Source: an uncultured Clostridia bacterium
GTDB lineage: Bacteria > Bacillota > Clostridia > TANB77 > CAG-508
Reading direction: 5' to 3'
Assembly (NCBI GenBank): GCA_948852945.1
Contig: CAQPBJ010000007.1
Location: 6,590-70,589, forward strand
DNA length: 64,000 bases
This document shows, piece by piece, positions 5,613 through 31,528 of this stretch; the stretch's first letter is position 1; each line of letters starts with the position of its first letter. The position numbers and the translations under genes are program-made. The notes below the pieces were generated by a model, which worked only from the letters and a program-made list of their open reading frames with translations, made no database searches and was not told the origin of the DNA.

Positions 5613-6321
5613 TATGGAAGATATAAAAGATTTTATAAAAAATGAAGCAAGTAAAAATAATATAAATCTTTCAGAAAAAGAAATAGAATTATTTTATTTA
5701 TATATGAATAATTTAATAGAATGGAATCAGAAAATAAATTTAACTGCTATAAAAGAAGAAAAGGAAATTGTAATAAAACATTTTATGGATTCTATTGTAA
5801 TAAAAGATGAAATTGTAGGAAGTAGAGTGCTTGATTTGGGTTCTGGAGCAGGATTCCCAGGAATACCTTTGAAAATAGTTAATGATAAATTAGAAGTAAC
5901 TTTATTAGATGCAGTCAATAAAAAAGTTAATTTTATGAATGATACAATAGAAAAAATTAAATTAAAAAATATTGTAGCAATTCATGCAAGAGCAGAAGAG
6001 TTAGCACATGATGAAAAATATAGAGAAAAATATGATATTGTTGTTTCAAGGGCTGTTTCAAATATGACTACACTTGTGGAATATATGTTACCATTTTTAA
6101 AAAAAGGTGGAAAATGTATATGCTTAAAAGGGCCAGATGTGGATAACGAGTTAGAAGATGCAAAAAATGCAATTAGAATTTTAGGAGGAAAAATAGAGAA
6201 AAAGATGCAGTATGATTTAAATGGTAATGGACGCAGTTTAATAGTGATTTTAAAGGAAAAACACACCGAACAAATATACCCACGAAAACAAGGAAAACCT
6301 ATTAAAGAACCATTAAAATAA
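5602..6321 (+). CDS. rsmG: 16S rRNA (guanine527-N7)-methyltransferase RsmG (GidB)
   Basis: SAM motif [16 protein letters not shown] and synteny after mnmG. The true start may be the ATG at 5614 (MEDIKDF..). Confidence 0.9.
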
Positions 6322-6336
6322 AAATTGAAAAAATAA

Positions 6337-6390
6337 TGTTCCACAGATAACCTGTTGATAACATGTTGATAATCTGTGGATATTTTTTTG
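6337..6390. promoter_or_regulatory. DnaA-box-like cluster overlapping a terminator-like hairpin
   Basis: TGTTGATAA (6353), TGTTGATAA (6364) and TGTGGATAT (6375) are direct repeats at 11-bp spacing, each 8/9 to TGTGGATAA. TGTTCCACA at 6337 is a fourth weaker box. CCACAGAT/ATCTGTGG also form an 8-bp stem followed by a T run. Confidence 0.35.
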
Positions 6391-8680: not shown

Positions 8681-8689
8681 TAAAGTATA

Positions 8690-8718
8690 TTGACATTTAT
8701 AGTTTAATGTGTTAAATT
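8690..8718 (+). promoter_or_regulatory. sigma-A-type promoter for the tRNA-Ser pair
   Basis: TTGACA (8690-8695), 17 bp, TAAATT (8713-8718) with an upstream TGT (extended -10). About 15 nt before the tRNA 5' end. Confidence 0.55.
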
Positions 8719-8733
8719 ATTAATGTTCTTCAC

Positions 8734-8825
<92 letters not shown>

Positions 8826-8864
8826 ATGCTAGATATGAAATACTATCTAGCTTTATAATTATAC

Positions 8865-8956
8865 GGAGATTTACCCAAGTGGCTGAAGGGGACAGTTTGC
8901 TAAACTGTTAGGGTTCGTTTAGGGCCGCGAGGGTTCAAATCCCTCAATCTCCGCCA
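8865..8956 (+). tRNA. tRNA-Ser (anticodon GCU), CCA encoded
   Basis: Acceptor GGAGATT/AATCTCC. Anticodon stem ACAGT/ACTGT with loop TTGCTAA. Long variable arm. T arm GAGGG-TTCAAAT-CCCTC. Confidence 0.9.
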
Positions 8957-8957
8957 A

Positions 8958-8990
8958 CAGATAGTATAATAAAGTACTATCTGTTTTTTT
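8958..8990 (+). terminator. rho-independent terminator after the tRNA pair
   Basis: CAGATAGTA (8958-8966) pairs with TACTATCTG (8975-8983), followed by T7. Confidence 0.7.
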
Positions 8991-9628
8991 ATTTTCGGCA
9001 AATAGAATAAATTTCTAAAATAATTTTTAAAAGCGACGAGAATCTAAAAATATAATAAAAAGATAGATAGTGATGTAACTTTATTAAATAATTATAAAAA
9101 ACGAAATATGGCGATTTTAAAGCTTTAAAAAATGATGAAAAATAGTAAATATTTTATATAAAAAATAAATATAAAAAAGAGGCTTTAAAAAATTAAAAAA
9201 TAGATATTAATTATATAATAAAAAAATATATAATATTTTTGTGTATGAATTGTGGAATAAAAAAATATAAATCAAGAAATAAAATAAATTAAAAAATAAA
9301 AATTAGGAACTGTAAAAAAATAAAAAATATTAAAAAATTTAATGTAACATAAAAAGAGGTTGAAAAATAAGGAAAAAAATGAAATATATTACATAAAAAA
9401 TAAATAAATAAAAATAATTTTAAATATTAAAAAAAATAAATAAAAATAAAAAAATATTAAAAAATAATAAATAATAATAAATAATAATAAATAATTAAAA
9501 AAAATAATTATAATTAATCTAATGTAACAGAATAAATTTAATAATAATATGAAAAATTAGTTTAATGAATTTGAACAATATTTTTTTGAAAGATGATTTT
9601 GTTGTAGTTATAATTAATTAGTTTATGT

Positions 9629-9700
9629 TTGTCAAAATATTATATAAAATTAGCATTAAAAAAAGAAAAAGATATGCATATTGTTGTATCAAATTGACTA
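9629..9700 (+). promoter_or_regulatory. degenerate module copy (P0)
   Basis: TTGTCA at 9629-9634 and GACTAAAAAA at 9696, but the spacing is 65 rather than 45-47. No clear upstream box. Confidence 0.25.
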
Positions 9701-9926
9701 AAAAATAGAAATACTTTTTTGCGGAGTGTAGAATTTAGATTTTGGAGAGAAATTTTCTTAAAAGAGAAGATATGAGTTGAGTAATGTGTTTACAGATATA
9801 CAGAATTTAAAAGTAGTATATGTTCATAAGAACATTTTTTTAAATTTATTAAATTAAAATTATTCAATAAAATAAGAAATATTATAAAAAAAGAATGTTA
9901 ATTATACGCCTATAAATTTTAAAAGC

Positions 9927-10036
9927 TTGATATTAGTGGATTATATGTTTTAAAAGAAAGATAATTATTAAAAATAATTGTCAAAAAAGAAGTTCATGAT
10001 TATATGTATAAATATTTAAAGAGGAAGACAAAAAAT
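9927..10036 (+). promoter_or_regulatory. array module P1 (three-box unit with promoter-like core)
   Basis: TTGATA 9927-9932. Exact TTGTCAAAAAAGAAG 9978-9992, with 17 bp to TATATG at 10001-10006. AGACAAAAAA at 10026. Confidence 0.6.
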
Positions 10037-11079
10037 GAGTTTAAAAATATTAAGGGAGAAGTTTATTTGTAAAAGTCTTTATTTTTAAAAATTAGTAAAG
10101 ATGGACGGAATAATGAGAAAATTAAGATGATTTTAATTTTTAGTAAGATATAGTAGTAAATTAAACATAAGCTAAAAATAAAAAAGTTATGATATGTAAT
10201 AGCTATATTGTCTATTAAGCAACATGAAAAGTAGAGTAAAAAGAAAGCTATTATAATAGATATTAGAGAAAGAAAAGAGCTAAAAAATGAATATAAAATT
10301 TGAAAATGTATTAAAGAATAATTTGATATAAAAAGTTATTGAATTTAAAATATTGAAAAATTTATTAAATATAAAAAATATTGAAAAAAATATAGAAAAA
10401 TATTAAAGCAAATAAAAAAATATTGAAGTAAAAATAAAAAATATTAAAATAAAAAACGATAAAAAAAATAAATATAAAAAATAAATTTAATTTATAGGAA
10501 TATAATTATAAAAATTTTCTATAGATGAATAATATTATAAAAATATTTTTTAAAGAAATATCTATGAAGATAAAAAACTAAAAATAAATCTAGATAAAAT
10601 GAAAAAATTTTTTGAATAAGAAAAAGATTTGTTATTATTTATAAAAATTTAAAAATAAAATGAAGAAAAAACTTGTTTAGAAAATTTTAAGTAAAAATAA
10701 ATATCGGTAATACTTATTATTTATTTTTATTTTTTATTAATATTATAAAATGAAAATAAATGGATAAAAAATATATTCAAAAATATTAAAAAAATATAAT
10801 AATGGAATATAATATTACAAGTTTTCAATTATTATTTTAGAATATGAAAGTATTTTAAAATTAAAACTAACCATGAAAAAAGATGTATAAGGAGTTAATA
10901 AATTTGCAGTTTAATGTAAACATTTTTTTTCATTAAAAATGAGCGGTAATCGATAGAGAATTTTTTAAATTGCGATAGTATTCGTATTTTTTTTTATTTT
11001 ATAAATATATTTTTAGCAAAAATAGTAAAAATGTTCACTAAGTATACATAATACAGTATAATATAAAACTTTAAAAATG

Positions 11080-11189
11080 TTGATATAAAAGGATAGTATG
11101 CAATGCAAATACTTTATAAACAAAAAAGTATTGTCAAAAAAGAAGTATAGAGATATTTAAAAATATTTATTTGTGATAGACAAAAAAAT
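11080..11189 (+). promoter_or_regulatory. array module P2
   Basis: TTGATA 11080-11085. Exact 15-mer 11131-11145, with 17 bp to TATTTA at 11154-11159. AGACAAAAAAA at 11178. Confidence 0.6.
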
Positions 11190-12087
11190 GATATAAATAA
11201 TAACAATTATGATAAAAAAGTAAGTAAGTAATGAAAATGAGTTAACATAAAAGACAAAAAGATGGTAAGGAGCACCTATGATTTTAAAGTATAAAATTTG
11301 TAAGTTGTAATATAAAAAACAATGGAATAATACATAAAAAAGTAGTTTTTTTAAAATAAATTAAAATATTTATTTTTTATTATTAAATATAAAATAAAAG
11401 TAAATAAATTCTAAAAAATATTAAAAATTATTTATATTTTTTAGAAAGGAATGAATAAATAATTTTAAAAATAAGAAAATATAAAAAAATATTATTGTTT
11501 ATTTTAAATAATATTGAAAAAATATTTGAATAGAATCAAATATTTATTAAAAATAGTAGAGTAATTAATTTTTTCGGTAGATTAAAATTAATTATTTATT
11601 GTATAATCATTTTTATTATTTTATCGATTTATTAATATTAACTTTTTTAAAGAAAATTAATAGAAATTTTTTAGGAAGTTGATTGCTAACTTTATAATTA
11701 TCTAAATTAATTATAATTTAGATTTTATTTTCTAATTAATATTAAAAAAATAAAATAAGATCTAAAAAAATAAAGATAAATATTTAAAAAATAAAATTAA
11801 TTATTCAAAAATAAATTAAAAAATTAAGAATACTATTATGGAAATTATAATTATCATCAGGAAATTTATAAAGATAAAGATGAAGTTTAGGCAGCTTATT
11901 ATTACTAATATTTTATAAAAAAGAGAAAAGATCGGAAGATGTTTTTTTATAAAAGTAATGTTTTTAAATTTGAGTTGAAATTTGAATATTATCATTTTTT
12001 ATAAATTATATATCTATTATAGGTAAGTTTTTTTATGTTAACAACATAAAAAATACTGGTATTTTATTATATTATAGCTTAAATATC

Positions 12088-12194
12088 TTGATATAAGCTA
12101 AGTATATCTGATACATTAAAATAAAAAGTAACGGTATTTGTCAAAAAAGAAGGTTGCAAATATAGTGAAAAAATTTAAAAATGAGACAAAAAAA
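12088..12194 (+). promoter_or_regulatory. array module P3
   Basis: TTGATA 12088-12093. Exact 15-mer 12138-12152, with 17 bp to TATAGT at 12161-12166. AGACAAAAAAA at 12184. Confidence 0.6.
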
Positions 12195-12889
12195 GGCTAG
12201 CTTTTGTATAAAATTTTAAGTAAAGATGTTAAGCTAGTTACTTATTAGACAAAGTATGAAGGAAGAGATACGTAGAGATTATATGAATTTTTAAGATACA
12301 AATTGTATAAATAAATAGCAAAGTTTTTATTATATTACTATTAAAACTATACATGAAAAAATATACAAAAAAAGAATTTAAACATTAAAATAATATCAAA
12401 TAATTATTAAAAAATAAAATGAAAATTAGTTATAAATTTTATAATTTATATAAAAAGATGTATAAATAAAATAATTATATAAAAATAAGTAAAAAAGATT
12501 AGAACAAAATATGTATTTATTGTTATTTAAATTCTTTTTTTATTTCGAATATTTAAAATAATAAAAAATACTAATTAATTTATTAGAAATAATAAAAAAA
12601 TCTTAGAAAATTAATAATAACAAACTATTGAATAGTAATGTTTTTTATAGTATGAACTAGTGAAGAAAGATATGACAAATTAGCATAAAACAAATGATGT
12701 TTGTATAGTTTGATACACAGTTTATGACATTTAAATTTGTGATTTTTCTAGTGGATAAATTATGGAAAAATGTGAAGAAATTTAGTAAATTTAATTTTTT
12801 TGAGGTTTATTCTAATAAAAAAACATAATTATGTTAACTATCGAAAAATATTTCCTTCTTTAAAAGTAGGATACTAATTGATGTAATAC

Positions 12890-12999
12890 TTGATAATAGA
12901 GAATTATACATAATATTTAGGTATGAGGTTTTAAAAAACTTTGTCAAAAAAGAAGATTTAAAATATTAAGTAATTATTTTAGGTAGAAGACAAAAAAAC
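12890..12999 (+). promoter_or_regulatory. array module P4
   Basis: TTGATA 12890-12895. Exact 15-mer 12941-12955, with 17 bp to TATTAA at 12964-12969. AGACAAAAAAA at 12988. Confidence 0.6.
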
Positions 13000-13210
13000 A
13001 GGGATTATTAGCATATTTTGTTATTAAAAAATGAAAAAATTAATTTTTAGCTGGCTACAAGACAAAGCCTTAAATGGCTTATTTACGGTTTTTTATAAAA
13101 AAGACATATGATATCATAGCCAAATTATGTATAGAAAAATATATTTCTATACTAAAACTTAGAGATAAATAATGTTTTTTGCATTTAATTATAATGCATT
13201 AAAAAAATAA

Positions 13211-13390
13211 GAAAATTATTAAAAAAATTGGAGATATATAATCATATATTTTTATTTTTTTTGAAAATTAATGAGAAAATCAGAGATATATAATCATATA
13301 TTTCTATTTTTTGAAAATTAATTAGAAAATTAGAGATATATAAATTATATATTTCTATTTTTTTGAAAATTAATTAAAAAATAGAAATAA
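13211..13390. repeat. tandem repeat, ~51 bp x ~3.5, each copy with an imperfect dyad
   Basis: GAAAATTAAT(G/T)AGAAAAT(C/T)AGAGATATATAAT(C/T)ATATATTT(C/T)TATTTTTT repeats head to tail. The internal dyad is AGA(G/A)ATATAT-N4-ATATAT(T/C)TCT. Confidence 0.8.
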
Positions 13391-13864
13391 AAACATATAA
13401 AAATTTATAGTATTTATGAATTTAATTTTTGTATTTCATTAAAAAGTGTAGAATGTTTTATAGAGAATATATAATTTTATGAAATTTAAGTTTATATTAA
13501 TTGGCTGATTAAAAAATTATATATATATAAATATTGAAAGTTGTGTTCAGGTAAAAAAATTTATCTGGATTTTTTTATTATTTAATTATTTTTTTTGATT
13601 TTTTTTATTATTTATTATTTTTTTTTGAATTAATTAATATTTTTTAAATTAATAATAATTTTATTATTAAATCTCAGAAAAAATTATAAAAAATAAATTT
13701 TAAAAAACTGTGGATTGTAACATAAAAAAAATTAAAAAATGTACAAATATTTTATACACAAAACAAATGTTTATAGTGTTTAAAAATAAAATTTAAAAGT
13801 TTGATTTTTAGGATTAAACTGATAAGATTTTTTATAAAAAGTGTTTGAAAAAATGAAAAATTTA

Positions 13865-13985
13865 CTTCTTTTTTTGTCAAAGATATATTTTATTTCGAAT
13901 AAATGAAAAACTACTTTTTAGACAAATAAAAAAATATGTTAAAAATTATTAAATTTTTATTCAGTTGCTATATAGTACTATTTCC
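13865..13985 (-). promoter_or_regulatory. array module M1 (minus strand)
   Basis: Read on the minus strand: GGGAAATA (rc of 13979-13985), 60 bp, TTGTCTAAAAAGTAG (rc of 13911-13925), 45 bp, GACAAAAAAAGAAG (rc of 13865-13878). Confidence 0.5.
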
Positions 13986-14579
13986 CAAGGTTTTCACGAG
14001 TTTGTGTGCAATTTCATATTCTTTTTTTACTATTTTTTGTCTTTTAAAATTTCTTTTTTTGATTTAAGAAAGATAAAAAATTAAAAATGAAAATTAAAAA
14101 AAAGTTGAATAATAAGATTTTGATTATAAATTGTAAAATGAATATTTATTATAAAAACAAAAAAACAGAAAAAGTTGTTAAAAATTTGATTATTATGTAT
14201 TTGAAATTAGGTTACATAAAAAACTTTATATGCTAAAAGATAATAAGAAATTTAAAAAAATTTTTGTAACAATTAATGAAAAATAAATATGAAAAAAATA
14301 AAATTTATTGTTTTTTGCCTTTTTGAATTTTTTTTATTTTTTTATTATTTTTTAATAATTTTAATTAATTATTTTTTGTAATATTCTTGTTTTATTCGAA
14401 TTAATTTATAATATTAAATATATTATATATATTATATTGATAAAAATTAAATAGAGAAATTTAATCGAAAAAATTCTATTTTAATTTTTCTTTTAAGATT
14501 CGTTAATTTTTTTATTGTCTTATATTAGGATAATTTTTTTATAAATTTGCCTCATAAAGATTAAAGAATAGTACATTAT

Positions 14580-14691
14580 TGTCAAAACGTTTACTATTTT
14601 TTTTATAAGTTTTTTATTTTATATTTTAGCAAACATTTTTGAAAGTAAGTTTTAAAAATATAGAATAATATTTGCTGTTCCTTGTATTTCC
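14580..14691 (-). promoter_or_regulatory. array module M2
   Basis: Minus strand: GGAAATA (14685-14691), 59 bp, TTGCTA (14627-14632), 47 bp, GACAA (14580-14583). Confidence 0.45.
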
Positions 14692-15404
14692 TAGACTTTA
14701 AGGAAATGAGAATTTTATGAATGGTAAAAAATAATTTAAAATTTAAGTAAAAAAATATAGAAAATATTTAAAAAATAATTTTGAAATTGATAGTGTTAAA
14801 AAATAAAAAAATTTATCAGTTAAATAAAAAAATTTTTATTTTAGAAGAAATTTTAAAAAATAAAAATTTTAAAAAATAAAATATCTAGTTAATATAAATT
14901 AAATATGAATTAAATATGAAGACTTAATATATTCTATTATAATAATATAAGATTAAGGTGATATTTTTTATATTTAAATCATTAAATAGGGTGTGTAATA
15001 TTAAAAATATTTAGTAAAAAGCCTTTTTTTGACTTCATAGCTAAAAAGCTTATTTACAGACTTTAAAAAATAATTATTGATAAATTTATTTCCTAGTTGT
15101 AGAGGTAGTTTGAAAGAGTTACATTTAGATATATTATGAATGAGTTTTTATTAAATAAAAAAATATGATGAAAAGTATAATAATTCTTAAAAAATAAAAA
15201 ATATTTATTTTGATTTATTATTATTTTTTAAGATTATTTTTTGGAAAAAAAGTTGTAATACAAAAAAATACTGAAATATTTAAAGAATATTAAAAAAATA
15301 TAGAAAAATAAAAATTTTTTTATTTAAGTATTATATTGTGTTTTAGTATGAATTATATGTTGTCTAAACTAAAAAAAGTTCAAGAATTTAGTAAATTAGT
15401 TAAA

Positions 15405-15524
15405 TAGAATAATTGTCTTTGATAAATTAAATTTTAATATATTTGAATGGTTCTTTTTTGACAAATAAATTTTTAAAAAATAGTACTATATTAAATATGT
15501 AAGAATGAATTTTTAAGCATTTCC
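15405..15524 (-). promoter_or_regulatory. array module M3 (best minus-strand promoter-like copy)
   Basis: Minus strand: GGAAATG (15518-15524), 60 bp, TTGTCAAAAAAGAAC (15450-15464), 17 bp, TATATT (15436-15441). AGACAA is 45 bp downstream (15414-15417). Confidence 0.55.
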
Positions 15525-16099
15525 GCATAGTTCAAAGTTTTTAAAATTAAAAAATATATTAAATTAAATAAGTTTTTATTTTTAAATTTATATTTATAAT
15601 AACTATATTTATTATAAAAGAAAGATAAAAAAATAATAAATTTTTATTATTTAAATGAATTTAAATTTGAATAGAGGGGATAGAATTTTAAAATATTAAA
15701 TATAAATTTTAAATTAATGATTAAACAATAACTTTTAATTTTAAATATTTTTTTATTTGACAATATAAAATTTTTATCACTTTTTATAAAATTTGTTAAT
15801 TATACTATTTGAAGTGTAATATTTTTTATTAAAATAGAGTAGTTTTACCAAAAAAAAGAGTATTTTGATGCTAGTTTACAGCTATAAATAGAAAAAAATA
15901 AGAAATATTAATTTTTAATGATTTATGAATGTAATATATAAAGATTTTGTATTTAATATTAATAAATAGATATTAAAAAGGTAGAAAGGTAATTATATAA
16001 ATTAATAAAAAATTTTTGCAATTAAGATTTTTTATTTTGTCTTATTTTAATTTTATAAGAAAGATTTTTGATTTTATTGAGTAAATTTTTATAAAGTTT

Positions 16100-16211
16100 T
16101 GACTTTAAAATAAGTATTAAAAATGTTTTTTTATATATTTTCTTTTTTACAAAGATTTTTTTTAGATAGAATTAATATAAAGATATGATACGAGCTAATA
16201 TGCTTTATTCC
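16100..16211 (-). promoter_or_regulatory. array module M4
   Basis: Minus strand: GGAATAA (16205-16211), 59 bp, TTGTAAAAAAGAAAATATATAAAAA (from 16152 downward), 47 bp, GTCAAAA (16100-16103). Confidence 0.45.
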
Positions 16212-17496
16212 TATGTTTTTTAGATTTACTTATGAAAAATAAAATGGATAATTTACAATTTTGGTCATAAAATTTTTATAAAAAAATGTGAATTTTATAA
16301 AATTAAAAATTTATATTATATTATTGAATTTATTATTTAGGTTAAAAAAATTTTTTGAAATTAGTATTGGTTTGAAAATTTTAAAAAAGTTATTGATTAA
16401 AAAGAAAAAAGTTTTTATTTAAAGACTAATATTTTAAAAAATGAATAAATGGATACTGAGATATCTAACAGATTAATATATTAATTTTTTTTGTAATTTG
16501 ATATCTTAAAAATTGAATAAAAATTGTATGTGAAATTTTATGACTATTAATTTTTAAAAATATATTTTTTCTGTAAGCCTTGAAAGGAGCAGTTTTTAAT
16601 TTTTGACGTTTTTTTATTTGATAATTTGTATACATAAAATATTAGGGATTATTTTTTAATATTTATTTATATATTTTTTTAGAAGGAAAAATAGGTATTA
16701 CTTTTGTAATTTAATATATTTTTTTATAATAATTAAGGTATTATGTGATTGTATTTTTTTAAGATTATATATTATATAAGTGATAATTTATGAAAATTAC
16801 TTTGTCATTAAATAATTTATTTTATTATTATTTTTACTTATTGGTTAAATATTAGATAGTAATTAGTGATAAAAGATATGTTTTCTGTCATATTGTATAA
16901 AAAGTTAATGCTGGAAGTCCTTGATTTATAAGGAACGTATCAATTACAACAAAAAATGTGATAAATAAACTAAAATATTTTAACATATTTTCAATTATTT
17001 TATATTTATTATAATATTTGAATTAGCATTTTATTATTATATATATTATTTTTAAATATTTATTTATTAAAAAATATAATAATAGAGATAAAATATATAA
17101 AGAGAGGATAGCAAAATTGAATGTTAGAAAGTGTAATAAAAGGACTTAATATATATTAATAATATTTTATAGACTTATTTTTAATATAAATATAGCAGTT
17201 AATGAACTACTTGATACTCTAAGGATATAAATTTTTACTTAATTAATTTTAAAAATATATGTAATAAAAAGAATTTAATTAATTTATTAATGATTTTTTT
17301 TAAGAATATCTGTTTGTATATTTTTATATTTAAATTGTAATGTAAATGCTTTTTATTATTAATGATTCTTATTGATATAATAGAAGTCTATTTTTTATTA
17401 ATCATAAACTTAAAATATACTATATTTTATTTTGTCATAGTTTTAATTTTATGCATATATAAATGAAAATATCAAAAAAAATCTTAATTTTCTAAT

Positions 17497-17607
17497 TGTC
17501 ATTTAAAAATAGATTTTTTTGAAGTAATGAAAATACTTTTTTGGCAAAGAAATTCAAAAAGAAGATATAAAAATTAAATATGTAATTTCTATATACTATG
17601 TATTTCC
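17497..17607 (-). promoter_or_regulatory. array module M5
   Basis: Minus strand: TCGATACAACTTAGGAAATA (17601-17620), 60 bp, TTGCCAAAAAAGTAT (from 17547), 45 bp, GACAA (17497-17500). Confidence 0.5.
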
Positions 17608-18181
17608 TAAGTTGTATCGATTTTTATTTTTTAAAAAAATATTTAAATTTAATATTTTAATATTTTTATTTTTGGGTTTTTATGTACTCTAAGTGATGTA
17701 TTTTGATATCGAAATTAATGAAATCTTTCTTTTAGAGTCAAAATTTTTTTTAAGAAAAGTACCTTAAAACTAAAAGACTAAAAAATTGTGTAAAGTTTTT
17801 AATTTTGTTATAACTTTTTTTGCTTATTAAGAAAAGTTATTATTTTTACCGTATATTATTATAAAAATAGAACAGACGTGGAAAGCAGAGAATAGACTGT
17901 AATATATAAGGGGTTTTTTTGATCTTTTATATTTTTTAATATTTTTTAAAATTAAAATTAATTTTTTTAATTTATTTAAATACAAAAAAATTAAAAAAGT
18001 GGGAAATTATTTGTAATAATTGAGTTTTTTAGGTATAAAAGAAGTGATAGTTTTTATTGATTAAAAAAATAAAATCTTATAAGAGTAGATTAATAATATA
18101 AATATTTTTTAAAAGTATTGTCAATGATTATTTTTTTTAGAGAAAAAAATTATTTCTTAAAAGAAATAATTTTAAGTATTT

Positions 18182-18293
18182 TGTCAAATTATTATTCATT
18201 ATTTATATATTTTTATATATTTTCTTTTTTACAATTAATTTTTTATAGAGTATTTAGAAAAATATATTAATATCTTGTAATTCCTTTATATCC
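18182..18293 (-). promoter_or_regulatory. array module M6
   Basis: Minus strand: GGATATA (18287-18293), 59 bp, TTGTAAAAAAGAAAATATATAAAAA (from 18234, same subfamily as M4), 47 bp, GACAA (18182-18185). Confidence 0.45.
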
Positions 18294-18927
18294 TATGTTT
18301 TGTTGATTTAAATTAAAATAGAAATCATAAAAAAATATCAAATTTAGAACAAAAAATTCTATTTATTTAGTAGTGAGATAAATTAAGATAAAAATTATTT
18401 TTTTTATAAAAATTTGAATCTTGAGACTTAAAAATATATTTTTTTATGTTTTTAAAGATGATATTTATGAAAAAAATTTAAAGTTGCTAAAAAAGAAGAG
18501 TATAAATAAATAAATTCTTAAATATTAAAGTTAGAAGTATAAAAATAATAGTTATTTTATTGAGGTAATATTGTGTCAAATAAAATTAAGATTATTTTAA
18601 AAAATAATTTGAAAGCAATGTGCTTGAAATGCATGATACTGTAAGAGTTTGATTTTTCTACTATTTTATTTGAAATAAATTTATATTTTTTAATATTTAT
18701 TTTAAAAACAGATGTTTTGAAAGAATGATTAAAAATTATTAATATTTTGTAAAGAGTTATTTTGAAGTTTTATGGTCGAATTTATACTAGTAAGTGAATT
18801 ATTATTATAAATTTACTAATAAGATAAATAATTATTAAAAATTAAAAAATTAATGTTTTTAGATTGTCTTTTATAATTAAGGTTTTAATTATAATTGAAA
18901 ATATTTAAAAAGCTTAATTTTACAAGT

Positions 18928-19038
18928 TGTCTTTTTTTGGAGCATTTTTTTAAAGAACAATTATTACTTTTTTGCCAAATAAATATTTTAAGTCTAATAT
19001 ATGCAGATATATTAGATTTACTAAAAATCAGTATTTCC
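18928..19038 (-). promoter_or_regulatory. array module M7
   Basis: Minus strand: GGGAAATA (19032-19038), 60 bp, TTGGCAAAAAAGTAA (from 18978), 45 bp, AGACAA (18928-18931). Confidence 0.5.
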
Positions 19039-19633
19039 CTTGGTTTTAGAGAATTGTTTTTTTAAAATATTATTAATATTTTGATTATTTTAAATTTTTT
19101 TATTTGGATATTGATTTTGATAGAAAATACTTTTTATATTAGATTTTTTTATTATAATAGTGTAGAGGCAATTTAATATACGATATAAATATTTTAGAAA
19201 ACATATTGACTAAAAAAAATATAAAAATTTTAATAGGAATAAAAAAATTATTTGACAATTTTTAAAATAATTTAAATTGGCTTTATGTTGCTTTGAATTG
19301 ATGAATTTAGAATAAAAATTTTAATTTTTGGTGATTATTTTTATAAGGGCTTTATTATATGTAATATAATATGTTAGAAATGATTTTTTCTGATTTTTTT
19401 TAATTTTTAATTAATTTAATTAATTAAATTATATTTTTTATATATTTATTTTAATTTTTTTTATTAAATAATTAGATAAATTCATGTAATAATATATTTT
19501 TGCTTTTTAATGTATATATTCTTTTGAATAGATGATCTAAAAATAAATTATTAATTTGAGAAATTATTTTTGTCAGTATTTAATTTAGTATAAAAAAATT
19601 TTGACCGTTTATTTTGAGTTTTAAACGGTTTTT

Positions 19634-19760
19634 TGTCATTAGGTTGAGTAGTTTTATTATTAATTTTTTTTTTGGAATTTTTGCAACTAATTTTAAAAAT
19701 GAAAAAAGTGGTTAATAAATAAAACGGGATTTCACTGGTGTTTCCCATGTTATATCGATT
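19634..19760 (-). promoter_or_regulatory. array module M8
   Basis: Minus strand: TCGATATAACATGGGAAACA (19739-19760), 59 bp, TTGCAA (19681-19686), 47 bp, GACAAAAAA (19634-19637). Confidence 0.4.
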
Positions 19761-20078
19761 TCGGAAAAATCACAAATTACTGAAAATGTTTTTTAGACTT
19801 AAAATTTTTTGATTTTATTTAGTGAAAAATAATTAAAAAAATTTTAAAAAAATAATTTAAAATAGTGTGTATAAAAAAATAAATAATTAGAAATTTTATA
19901 TTTATAAGAACAATGAATATATTTAATTTTTAAATTGATTTAAAAATTAGAGCAATAGACAATATTTAAATATTTATTTATTATTTTTTTTATACAAATT
20001 TTATAAAAAATCACAATAATGTCTGTAATACTAATTTGTATATATTTTTTTAATATTTTAATAAAATATATAATAAAT

Positions 20079-20113
20079 AAAAAAATAAAGTGAATATGTT
20101 GATTATTCACTTT
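20079..20113 (-). terminator. terminator downstream of the activase-fusion gene
   Basis: AAAGTGAATA (20087-20096) pairs with TATTCACTTT (20104-20113). The A run at 20079-20085 gives a U tract on the minus strand. Confidence 0.55.
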
Positions 20114-20142
20114 ATTTTTAAAAGTTAAAAAATATTAATTTA

Positions 20143-30821: not shown

Positions 30822-31460
30822 TTATAGGTTATTTATAAAATCAATAATTTTGAATTTAAATTTATATTTTGGCTCAGAAGACTGGATAATATGAGTAGTT
30901 TCGTTTGAAAGGTTATTTGATAACAGCTCATTAGAATTTTCTTCTAATTCACAAGTTGAAGAATTTATTAAACACATTGGAGGAAATAATATACACCACC
31001 AATTTTCGCCTTTGGCATTGCCAAGTTTTATTTGTAGACCATCATAATTTCCAGATGGTAAGGTTATTGAATTATATTTTTTTGCTGGATAAAAAGAATT
31101 AGAAATTTCAAATTGAAAAGTATAGTCAAAACCATTTTCTTTGATTATATTTGATATTATTGTTTCAATATCTGTTTGATGATTTTTAAGGTGAAGAATA
31201 GTTTCTTCTTTATTTGATAAGTTAAATTTTGATAAATAATTTAAAATACTATTACGTACTTTTATTTTTAAATCTTGATCTATTTTTGAGTTACTATTTG
31301 CAACTACACGTAGTCTAAAAAGATTTTCTTCTAAATTGTTTGATATAGAATGGGAGTATGAAAATGAATTAAAAATAAAGTAAATAAGAAATAGTGTAAA
31401 CACTAAAATAATTGATTTTAGTTTCATAAAAGTAATCTCCTTTTCGATTAATTTGTACAA
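30822..31460 (-). CDS. spoIIR: stage II sporulation protein R
   Basis: LRVVANSNSKIDQDLKIKVRNSIL matches the SpoIIR signature. The likely true start is ATG at 31427 (MKLKSIIL..), behind AAGGAG. Confidence 0.8.
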   Translation of the reverse strand: MYKLIEKEITFMKLKSIILVFTLFLIYFIFNSFSYSHSISNNLEENLFRLRVVANSNSKIDQDLKIKVRNSILNYLSKFNLSNKEETILHLKNHQTDIETIISNIIKENGFDYTFQFEISNSFYPAKKYNSITLPSGNYDGLQIKLGNAKGENWWCILFPPMCLINSSTCELEENSNELLSNNLSNETTHIIQSSEPKYKFKFKIIDFINNL

Positions 31461-31528
31461 AGAGTATTGACAGTTTTTAGAAGAATATTCAAATTAATTT
31501 TATGTCGAAAATGGGCGTACGAAAGTAA

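Follow-up and report, generated by a model that had tools for sequence, protein, structure and literature searches.

Conserved, promoter-like modules in two convergent groups within a gene-free, origin-proximal region of an uncultured gut Clostridium

What is an 11.2-kb stretch of DNA without genes doing close to the replication origin of a gut bacterium, and what are the short words that recur in it at fixed distances? The question is raised by a 64,000-nucleotide stretch (hereafter the window) of contig CAQPBJ010000007.1 (assembly GCA_948852945.1, positions 6,590 to 70,589, forward strand). The host is an uncultured spore-forming gut Clostridium, with relatives named Candidatus Merdicola and Clostridium sp. 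CAG:245. An earlier note on this DNA had described four rightward copies of a 15-mer with promoter-like geometry in the gene-free region, which is referred to here as the desert. We found eight such modules in two convergent groups, and their counterparts in two further species. We tentatively interpret the modules as regulator-bound sigma-A-type promoters that head non-coding, A-tract-rich repeat units, a reading that comes close to, and does not reach, an even chance of being right.

The desert lies about 12 kb from the origin region, with dnaA about 2 kb to the left of the window start. The desert has 13-16% GC (about 14%), as compared to 23-31% in the flanks, and its GC skew is about 0.4. 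In agreement with the earlier note, which had placed the modules in sequence free of open reading frames (ORFs), no ORF of 100 amino acids or more is found within 8681-20142. The desert is real: independent assemblies (L011 and L232-L235; NCBI metagenome-assembled genome (MAG) GCA_949482225.1 and contigs from JGI, ENA, and Logan) contain it at 99-99.9% identity, and the number and order of its units agree in six assemblies of the window species. In the left half, “islands” of about 500 nt with 20-25% GC alternate with A-rich stretches of 5-10% GC, and a module stands in the middle of each island. The right half includes a 2.08-kb duplication. The units between modules are filled with A-rich micro-repeats of 10-13 bp; A-tract periodicity at 10.5-11.5 bp shows a modest enrichment of about 3-fold, which is not decisive.

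The four rightward modules of the earlier note (type A, U1 to U4) share the 15-mer TTGTCAAAAAAGAAG, which occurs exactly on the plus strand at 9978, 11131, 12138, and 12941. Each copy has three partners. TTGATA lies 51, 51, 50, and 51 bp upstream of the 15-mer, a hexamer (TATATG, TATTTA, TATAGT, and TATTAA, respectively) stands exactly 17 bp past TTGTCA, and AGACAAAAA begins at 10026, 11178, 12184, and 12988, at G-to-G distances from TTGTCA of 47, 46, 45, and 46. This arrangement, as the earlier note had reported it, was confirmed and lies far beyond chance. At up to two mismatches, TTGTCAAAAAAGAAG has 9 matches in the window versus 1.39 expected, and 0 of 100 shuffles reach 9. At up to one mismatch, the 53 kb that flank the desert in the window have none; as far as the window goes, the 15-mer is no general word. 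A profile built from the four modules recovers only those four full copies in 64 kb, together with a partial match at 15467-15431 on the minus strand. The picture of conserved boxes in drifting DNA also holds. Over -70 to +140, the type-A modules are 54.7% identical, a level that random 210-nt pieces from this region also reach when aligned alike (57.1%), and the longest invariant run in their alignment covers 15 columns (null mean 3.7, maximum 9, 150 trials). T-run hairpins, which had been placed ahead of the units, were found at 9820-9842 and, in weak form, before units 2 and 3, but unit 4 has an AT hairpin only. In the same part of the desert, the best promoter match, TTGAAA-17-TATAAT (11/12; 9586-9614, plus strand), is followed about 200 nt on by the hairpin/T-run ATGTTCATAAGAACATTTTTTT (to 9842), and 9586-9842 of the plus strand is a candidate small RNA gene upstream of module U1. 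Further sites of the form TTAAAA/TTAAGA-16-TATAAT lie ahead of the U2 and U3 islands (10786-10813 and 11824-11851).

The four-member rightward family of the earlier note exists, but it is half of a larger set, as four more modules lie on the minus strand. These type-B modules (13925, 15464, 17547, and 18978) have a common core, TTGNCAAAAAAG, followed by GACAA after 45-47 bp. The composite TTGNNAAAA[AG][AG] with GACAA at a G-to-G distance of 45-47 has eight matches in the window, all within the desert (9978, 11131, 12138, and 12941 on the plus strand; 15464, 17547, 18234, and 18978 on the minus strand). An additional minus-strand site, 13925, reads TTGTCTAAAAAG and has its partner TTGACAAAAAAAG at 13881. 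In all four type-B modules, a (G)GGAAAT(A/G) box is located exactly 53 nt upstream of TTG. This GG-box stands at -60 in type B versus -40 in type A, a difference of about two helical turns. A third and weaker subtype of module, TTGTAAAAAAGAAAATATATAAAAA, was observed at 16136-16152 and 18218-18234 of the minus strand, one per copy of the 2.08-kb duplication, with an AGGA(A/T)ATAAAG box upstream and G(T/A)CAA at 47.

The four rightward and four leftward modules converge on 13.0-13.9 kb, where a terminator-like bank of tandem repeats (13211-13393) is highly polymorphic among strains. Strains of the window species differ at 142 desert positions, about 100 of them at 13.0-15.5 kb (L233, L234, and L235). 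The convergence zone (13001-15500) looks like a recombined divergent haplotype, with the remaining desert nearly invariant among strains; an 11-nt insertion at 13646 is among the differences. The box cores hold 1 polymorphic site in 171 nt versus about 2.5 expected, a comparison that has no statistical power.

Comparison with two related species, S (L215) and T (L228), brings the total to 21 modules (8 in the window species, W, 8 in S, and 5 in T). For species S, identity to W is 96% in the flanking protein and 84.6% in coding DNA; its desert is ORF-free, at least 10 kb long, and gives only low-complexity A-rich matches to the W desert, as do DNA alignments of the W desert to relatives in general. 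It carries five rightward and three leftward modules in the same convergent layout. The rightward modules read TTG(T/A)CAAAAAAGTAG, are spaced 934-1163 bp apart, and all have AG(A/T)CAA exactly 31 nt past the 15-mer. The leftward modules are one-to-one orthologs between W and S: 15464/7364 (with the TGCGGAAAT box), 17547/8781 (both TTGCC), and 13925/5770, in which the upstream box of S-5770 is GGATATA instead of GGAAATA. Beyond these orthologs, little of the right-half desert can be aligned. In species T (flanking protein 91% identical, desert of at least 8.5 kb with 13.6% GC), there are five type-B modules, of which four read TTGTCAAAAAAGAAT and the fifth (4184) reads TTGCCAAAAAAACAC. GGAAATA lies exactly 53 nt upstream of TTG in four of the five, the fifth (4184) having GGAAGCA, and G(A/T)CAA is found at exactly 45 in all five. 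Relative to the flanking gene, the five modules are oriented opposite to the type-B group of W.

Across W, S, and T, the G-to-G distance to GACAA is held at 45-47 in indel-rich DNA, and a gapless comparison of the 16 modules of W and S shows high information content at two places only, the 15-mer and GACAA. Selection on the boxes, proposed in the earlier note from the window, is now supported by the same 15-mer core with GACAA at the same distance in two more species, because all three species keep the modules while the surrounding desert DNA is unalignable. In contrast, TTGATA, which had been listed as a fixed partner, is not conserved in S; the counterparts of CTTGATA there are CTTTATA, CTTTAAA, CTCACAA, and others. 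Each species has its own 15-mer tail, uniform across co-oriented copies (GAAG in W, GTAG in S, and GAAT in T), which points to concerted evolution or co-evolution with a binding partner. The three-box composite was found neither in 225 other fetched loci nor in 2.9 million viral contigs. In two more distant species (L034 and L050), TTGNCAAA(A/G)AGAC words occur at the same locus and in the same orientation, and several of their TTGNCAAARAGAC words have TATCAT, TATAAT, or TATGAT 17-18 bp on. The word AAAGACAAA recurs in five species.

The earlier note had read the modules as sigma-A promoters, and part of that reading stands. The -35-like hexamer of the 21 modules is TTGTCA in 14, TTGACA in 1, TTGTCT in 1, and TTGCC or TTGGC in 5. 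TTGTCA matches the -35 consensus TTGACA at five of six positions and, by sequence, can be classed as a sigma-A-type -35 hexamer. TAT occurs exactly 17 bp past TTGNCA in 8 of the 16 W and S modules, as compared to a background of 0.06 (binomial p about 4e-6). One orthologous pair keeps its -10-like word (TATATT in W-15464 and TATAAC in S-7364), with TTCAAAT-TATA in common and different surroundings. Genuine promoters in the window have the form TTGACA-17-TAnnnT, and the module word fits this local promoter grammar, as shown by one example, TTGCTAAAAAAG...TATAAT. Over kilobases in W, S, and T, AT skew follows the direction of the modules (+0.15 to +0.19 for right-pointing and -0.03 for left-pointing ones), with positive GC skew throughout all three deserts; the orientation-linked AT skew suggests an orientation-dependent process such as transcription. 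Terminator hairpins lie past the last rightward module in W (13229-13364 and 13546-13576), and S likewise has a hairpin terminator, GAATCCAA...TTGGGTTC followed by T8. The -10 words of L034 and L050 also favor a promoter.

The -10 element is the weak part of that reading: it is non-canonical in W and S, and T has none at that spacing. Several observations weigh against promoter function. Of the 8 TAT-bearing modules, only 3 have a T at -7, which equals the background T frequency, and this T is absent from three of the four type-A -10 hexamers. Information content at +23 to +28 is near zero (gapless, 16 modules). All five T modules have ATTAAA, AATAAA, or AATAAG at the -10 place, and none has TAnnnT at a spacing of 16-18 bp; W-17547, W-18978, and S-8781 have CTTCAA, CTTTAA, or CTTTCT there. 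The 15 invariant bases and the fixed GACAA at about +12 exceed the needs of a sigma-A promoter. The terminators found between internal units are weak AT hairpins of a sort that chance alone often produces in such DNA, and a generic promoter scan gave no excess in the desert (151 sites versus 148.6 expected). An invertible-promoter architecture was also considered, and no credible inverted repeats flank the modules.

According to the mechanism that we propose, each module would be a transcription-initiation module with TTGTCA as the sigma-A -35, a 17-bp spacer, and a weak TATnnn -10. The -35 hexamer would be set in a longer protein-recognition surface that includes the A6-G-N-A-G tail, GACAA at about +12 of the predicted transcript, and the upstream GGA(A/T)-type box. 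This putative surface is common to all copies and is probably bound by one dedicated regulator together with RNA polymerase. We infer from sequence both the start of RNA polymerase at the modules and the binding of a regulator. Because the three-box spacing is rigid in indel-rich DNA and is accompanied by no RNA structure, the module points to a protein-DNA complex of approximately 115 bp, which is about the footprint extent of RNA polymerase plus an activator. Each module would head a protein-free unit of 0.8-2 kb, in which an island of 20-25% GC is followed by A-rich 10-13-bp micro-repeats, and the four right-pointing and four left-pointing modules would fire towards a zone of terminator hairpins. 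The array probably evolves via tandem duplication and concerted evolution, with selection holding the boxes and their spacing only. Its output would be non-coding A-rich RNAs, or the act of transcription itself.

The main rival, which we consider somewhat unlikely, is that the boxes (GGAAATA, TTGNCAAAAAAG, and GACAA) are sites of a DNA-binding protein without productive transcription. Together with phased A-tract micro-repeats, such an array would build an origin-proximal nucleoprotein structure and could serve to organize or anchor the chromosome, to control replication, or to act as a titration sink for a regulator. This agrees with conservation that is confined to boxes and spacing, with the low information at the -10 position, with T modules that keep all three boxes yet have no -10, and with a GG-box that differs by two helical turns between types. 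The desert also adjoins parA-parB-DUF4446 at its short distance from dnaA, its micro-repeats show the modest A-tract periodicity given above, and relatives carry other tandem arrays with a single GC-containing core at this place, such as L081 (15250-17180), in which five units of about 450 bp have ATTGCGCATGCAGTAGATTTGATATTA, with the palindromic core TTGCGCATGCA, as their only GC-containing word. However, the 17-bp TAT enrichment and the orientation-linked AT skew are unexpected for a purely structural array, the inverted orientation in species T means that there is no fixed polarity towards oriC, and no candidate protein was identified. A parS 16-bp palindrome (TGTTNCACGTGAAACA) or a 14-bp Noc-binding sequence (ATTTCCCGGGAAAT) is absent from the 64 kb at up to three mismatches, the GGGAAATA half-site is not enriched, and the desert contains no DnaA-box cluster. 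For Spo0A there is a lead. The contact bases of the 0A-box core TGTCGAA are G2, C4, and G5, and a G5A change lowers the affinity of the Spo0A DNA-binding domain approximately 10-fold in electrophoretic mobility shift assays (PMC3485338). Both module boxes hold G-N-C-A-A, which is the core TGNCGAA with G5 changed to A; G2 and C4 are invariant in both boxes of 21/21 modules, 11 of the 14 TTGTCAAA words of the window fall in the desert, and the host is a spore-former. Consensus 0A boxes were nevertheless rejected, as the defining G5 is replaced by A in every one of the 21 modules, and Spo0A stays a lead only. A further view, which we regard as unlikely, places the function in the array itself, not in an encoded product. 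It would be an undescribed, selectively maintained origin-proximal array of GGAAATA-53 nt-TTGNCAAAAAAG-45 bp-GACAA modules and phased A-tract micro-satellites that forms a large nucleoprotein complex. The complex might consist of RNA polymerase and a master regulator, for example Spo0A~P with altered specificity, or of another partner, with which the species-specific, array-wide 15-mer variants would have co-evolved. Options for its role are titration of a regulator or a sporulation threshold, anchoring of the origin, a supercoiling or domain boundary set by convergent transcription, or unstructured A-rich RNA, made in bulk, that sequesters an RNA-binding protein.

It is quite improbable that the desert is a neutral, satellite-like tandem-repeat region in which unequal crossing-over or gene conversion keeps the 15-mers alike. 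The interval between tRNA-Ser and the dehydratase-activase gene is a variable hotspot across 80 related species (2.3-11.4 kb), some of which have unrelated genes there and some deserts with their own tandem repeats of other unit sizes. In addition, a species-uniform 15-mer variant is a hallmark of concerted evolution, the GC content and GC skew look like mutational equilibrium, and the within-species polymorphism is too sparse to show constraint. Yet gene conversion cannot hold a 15-bp tract identical beside bases at random-level identity, the right-half modules pair off one by one between W and S, private variants (TTGCC and the GGAAATG box) included, while the intervening DNA has turned over, and the 53- and 45-nt spacings are invariant across three species amid indels. 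Modules that mark cassette boundaries, att-like recombinase sites, or rolling-circle origins are very improbable. An identical core repeated directly about every 1 kb, with unrelated DNA in between, resembles a cassette array, the adjacent tRNA genes are classic integration sites, the type-B group is inverted in T, and CTTGATA, which equals the nick-site word of pC194-type Rep proteins, occurs in three of the four type-A modules of W, the exception being U2 with GTTGATA. These “cassettes”, however, are without any ORF and without an integrase or Rep gene in or beside the desert, their number and order are constant in the six assemblies, and the modules are not imperfect palindromes like attC. 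An integron cassette array was rejected on the lack of ORFs, the non-palindromic modules, and the flanks (parAB, DUF4446, tRNAs, and dehydratase activase), the search for intI going no further than the window. A rolling-circle origin of the pC194/phiX174 type was rejected as well, since CTTGATA is not conserved in S or T, there is no Rep ORF, and plasmid or phage similarity is absent (blastn against 50,697 phage and 72,556 plasmid records). In viral contigs, the bare 15-mer has single matches per contig (two in one contig), as by chance, and a metagenome scan for TTGATA-N44/45-15-mer gave three chance matches, none related to the window. There is likewise only a slight chance that the boxes act at the RNA level, in long A-rich transcripts begun elsewhere, where TTGTC and GACAA would close a stem of 5-6 bp around approximately 40 nt as a processing or protein-binding site. 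The two words are complementary in 12 of 16 modules, S+560 (TTGAC...GTCAA) has a compensatory double change, and minimum free energy folds pair both boxes in 7 of 16. Against this, the covariation score of 0.052 (shuffled mean 0.039) was reached by 133 of 500 shuffles, T+5822 (TTGTC...GTCAA) has an anti-compensatory change, three of 16 modules place C or G opposite A, all five TTGCC/TTGGC modules have mismatches, and a 5-bp A/U-rich stem is unstable when it closes a 40-nt loop. RNAalifold gave 0 pairs for 12 type-B modules and, for the type-A downstream regions, 5 weak AU-rich pairs (-0.45 kcal/mol), none at the boxes; in Rfam, only two tRNAs exceed the gathering threshold, and nothing credible appears at E up to 5. 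Extremely unlikely is the suggestion that each module drives a tiny ORF, either a small-protein or a type I toxin-antitoxin gene. ATG follows AGACAAAAAA in U1, U2, S+1723, and S+4679, and U1 has a Shine-Dalgarno-like AGAGGAAG with a 17-codon ORF. These ORFs, however, are unrelated in sequence and 2, 2, 5, 12, and 17 codons long, an ATG is lacking in U4, the minus-strand ORFs that span the 15-mer differ in frame, and no peptide similarity was found; among six-frame ORFs of at least 25 amino acids, nothing is conserved between units. A decayed pseudogene cluster was also rejected, as tblastn with 3631 ORFs from 80 related loci gave only five short (20-60 amino acids), scattered matches of borderline, chance-level significance (E 7e-4 to 9e-3).

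Several known systems share parts of this design. Paralogous small RNA arrays with a shared regulator-dependent promoter include Listeria LhrC1-5, the CiaR-controlled csRNAs of streptococci, and Vibrio Qrr1-5. Similar to these, the desert has several tandem, co-oriented non-coding units in which the promoter/operator is best conserved and the spacing from regulator box to -35 is fixed. Those systems, however, produce structured RNAs of about 100 nt with strong terminators and conserved seeds, whereas the desert units have no conserved structure or terminator, consist of 0.8-2 kb of A-rich micro-repeats behind a weak -10, and form two convergent groups in an 11-kb desert. The sopC locus of F is made of 12 tandem 43-bp repeats, and chromosomal origin-proximal sets comprise parS, the RacA ram sites, and the RefZ RBMs. 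With these sets the modules share repeated putative protein-binding words near parAB and oriC, and a conserved core in fast-evolving, species-specific DNA. The known sites are short palindromes, closely set or spread over hundreds of kilobases; in contrast, the modules are asymmetric, three-part, promoter-like, and 1-2 kb apart. Boxes bound by Spo0A overlap the -35, sit far upstream, or lie at about +12, as at spoIIG or abrB. The modules resemble such promoters in an invariant G and C spaced two bases apart ahead of an A-rich tract, in box positions, in the spore-forming host, and in the proximity to the origin, and differ from 0A boxes in the A at G5 of every module, in a second box without T1, and in 15 invariant bases as compared to a 7-bp box. 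Promoters controlled by Spo0A and 0A-box clusters, including those at oriC and in phi29-family phages, have been described (PMC3485338, PMC2731898). Elsewhere in the window, a perfect core TGTCGAA, one of two, is located at 31503-31509 (plus strand) in a divergent spacer, 43 nt upstream of a spoIIR homolog (30822-31460, minus strand). Vibrionaceae superintegrons reportedly contain gene-less, promoter-bearing cassettes of about 1 kb between conserved boundary repeats (PMC11014356). Both are arrays of ORF-free units of about 1 kb, with promoter activity in the cassettes and promoter-like sequence only in the desert. Unlike the superintegrons, the desert has neither attC-type palindromes nor an integrase, and its units stem from tandem duplication, not from cassette capture.

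Table. Coordinates of the modules, terminator-like sites, conserved blocks, and flanking features in the window
Feature	Position	Strand	Elements and remarks
Module U1, type A	9927-10035	+	TTGATA 9927-9932; 15-mer 9978-9992; TATATG 10001-10006; AGACAAAAAA 10026-10035
Module U2, type A	11080-11188	+	TTGATA 11080-11085; 15-mer 11131-11145; TATTTA 11154-11159; AGACAAAAAAA 11178-11188
Module U3, type A	12088-12194	+	TTGATA 12088-12093; 15-mer 12138-12152; TATAGT 12161-12166; AGACAAAAAAA 12184-12194
Module U4, type A	12890-12998	+	TTGATA 12890-12895; 15-mer 12941-12955; TATTAA 12964-12969; AGACAAAAAAA 12988-12998
Module 13925, type B	13874-13986	-	GGGAAATA 13979-13986; TTGTCTAAAAAGTAG 13911-13925; GACAA 13874-13878 within TTGACAAAAAAAG; ortholog S-5770
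Module 15464, type B	15413-15524	-	GGAAATG 15518-15524; TTGTCAAAAAAGAAC 15450-15464; TATATT at 17-bp spacer; GACAA 15413-15417; ortholog S-7364
Module 17547, type B	17496-17607	-	GGAAATA 17601-17607; TTGCCAAAAAAGTAT 17533-17547; GACAA 17496-17500; no -10-like hexamer; ortholog S-8781 (also TTGCC)
Module 18978, type B	18927-19039	-	GGGAAATA 19032-19039; TTGGCAAAAAAGTAA 18964-18978; GACAA 18927-18931; no -10-like hexamer
Weak hairpin/T-run sites before units 2 and 3	10914-10931, 10971-10995, 11955-12000		Comparable to 9820-9842
Three tandem 51-bp repeats, each hairpin and T-run	13211-13393	+	13229-13262, 13282-13312, 13331-13364; past last rightward module
Further hairpin/T-run	13546-13576	+	Convergence zone
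Conserved block, convergence zone	13698-13723		TTTTAAAAAACTGTGGATTGTAACAT; 25/26 identical in sister species S
Block conserved with sister species	14024-14046	-	Reads AAAGACAAAAAATAGTAAAAA, a further AGACAAAAAA word; about 115 nt upstream of module 13925
ORF-free desert holding all modules	8957-20142		Left bound tRNA-Ser(GCT) and terminator; right bound stop codon of 1429-aa BcrAD_BadFG/DUF2229 gene
tRNA-Ser(TGA)	8734-8825	+	Flanking context
tRNA-Ser(GCT)	8865-8956	+	Flanking context
Strong hairpin/T-run terminator	8956-8995	+	Closes flanking transcription unit ahead of desert

The left flank of the desert contains yidC, jag, mnmE, mnmG, rsmG, parA, parB, the DUF4446 gene, and the two tRNA-Ser genes, and the right flank begins with the 3' end of the BcrAD_BadFG/DUF2229 gene, which is of the 2-hydroxyacyl-CoA dehydratase activase type. 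In the rsmG-parA spacer, the DnaA-box-like words TTATCAACA, TTATCAACA, and ATATCCACA occur at 6353-6383 of the minus strand with exact 11-bp phasing, and a perfect TTATCCACA is located nearby at 6138-6146; these words may form a DnaA-box cluster outside oriC proper. Seven perfect DnaA boxes, TGTGGATAAC, were also observed in an AT-rich non-coding stretch of L040, L042, L046, and L072 (e.g., L072 at about 14650), which in these species is a desert downstream of the dehydratase-activase gene. Other relatives have different contents at the locus. L077 (15080-17240) carries at least nine units of about 200 bp. In species T (L228, 8685-17180), each unit of 1.5-1.8 kb has about 300 nt of 10-13-bp micro-repeats, such as TTATTATTTATTT, including an 11-copy run with 10-11-bp spacing, and such phased A-tracts predict intrinsically curved DNA. 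Directly behind the dehydratase-activase gene, five species (L056, L061, L067, L077, and L081; about 14500-14900 in each) share a conserved T-rich segment of about 400 nt and higher GC (e.g., TCATATTCGAGTGAATT and TAATCGAAGAGTGT), which is probably an unannotated gene for a small membrane protein. Most short-read contigs stop at the tRNA-Ser genes or 40-550 bp beyond the dehydratase-activase gene (L001-L010, L216-L221, and L230), and in the 90% and 88% relatives, every contig either breaks off 40-900 bp beyond the flanking gene or enters a surface-protein gene.

The module sequence family had no match in any library searched, literature searches gave no description of such deserts or arrays, and the element appears to be undescribed. 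Its kind is already known, either as arrays of co-regulated orphan promoters and non-coding units or as repeated binding sites near the origin. Not known is their combination: exactly spaced three-box modules, laid out convergently and with species-uniform variants, inside a compact genome in a gene-free, satellite-like region of 8.5 to more than 11 kb. The small, AT-rich genomes of gut Clostridia are normally gene-dense, and a gene-free stretch of this size at the same place in three species is unexpected, as are its short words with spacing exact to the base pair and variants uniform within each species. A practical warning follows for work with MAGs, as short-read assemblies mostly break at this locus and regions like the desert are therefore systematically lost from them. 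If the modules are promoters, a lineage known from metagenomes only would have a large family of non-coding transcripts under common regulation. As binding sites, they would make the desert a candidate for a novel type of origin-proximal element, organizing or titrating, in a spore-former. Either way, the outcome is a sharply defined 115-bp element, together with a data set of 21 modules from three species that pinpoints the bases that matter.

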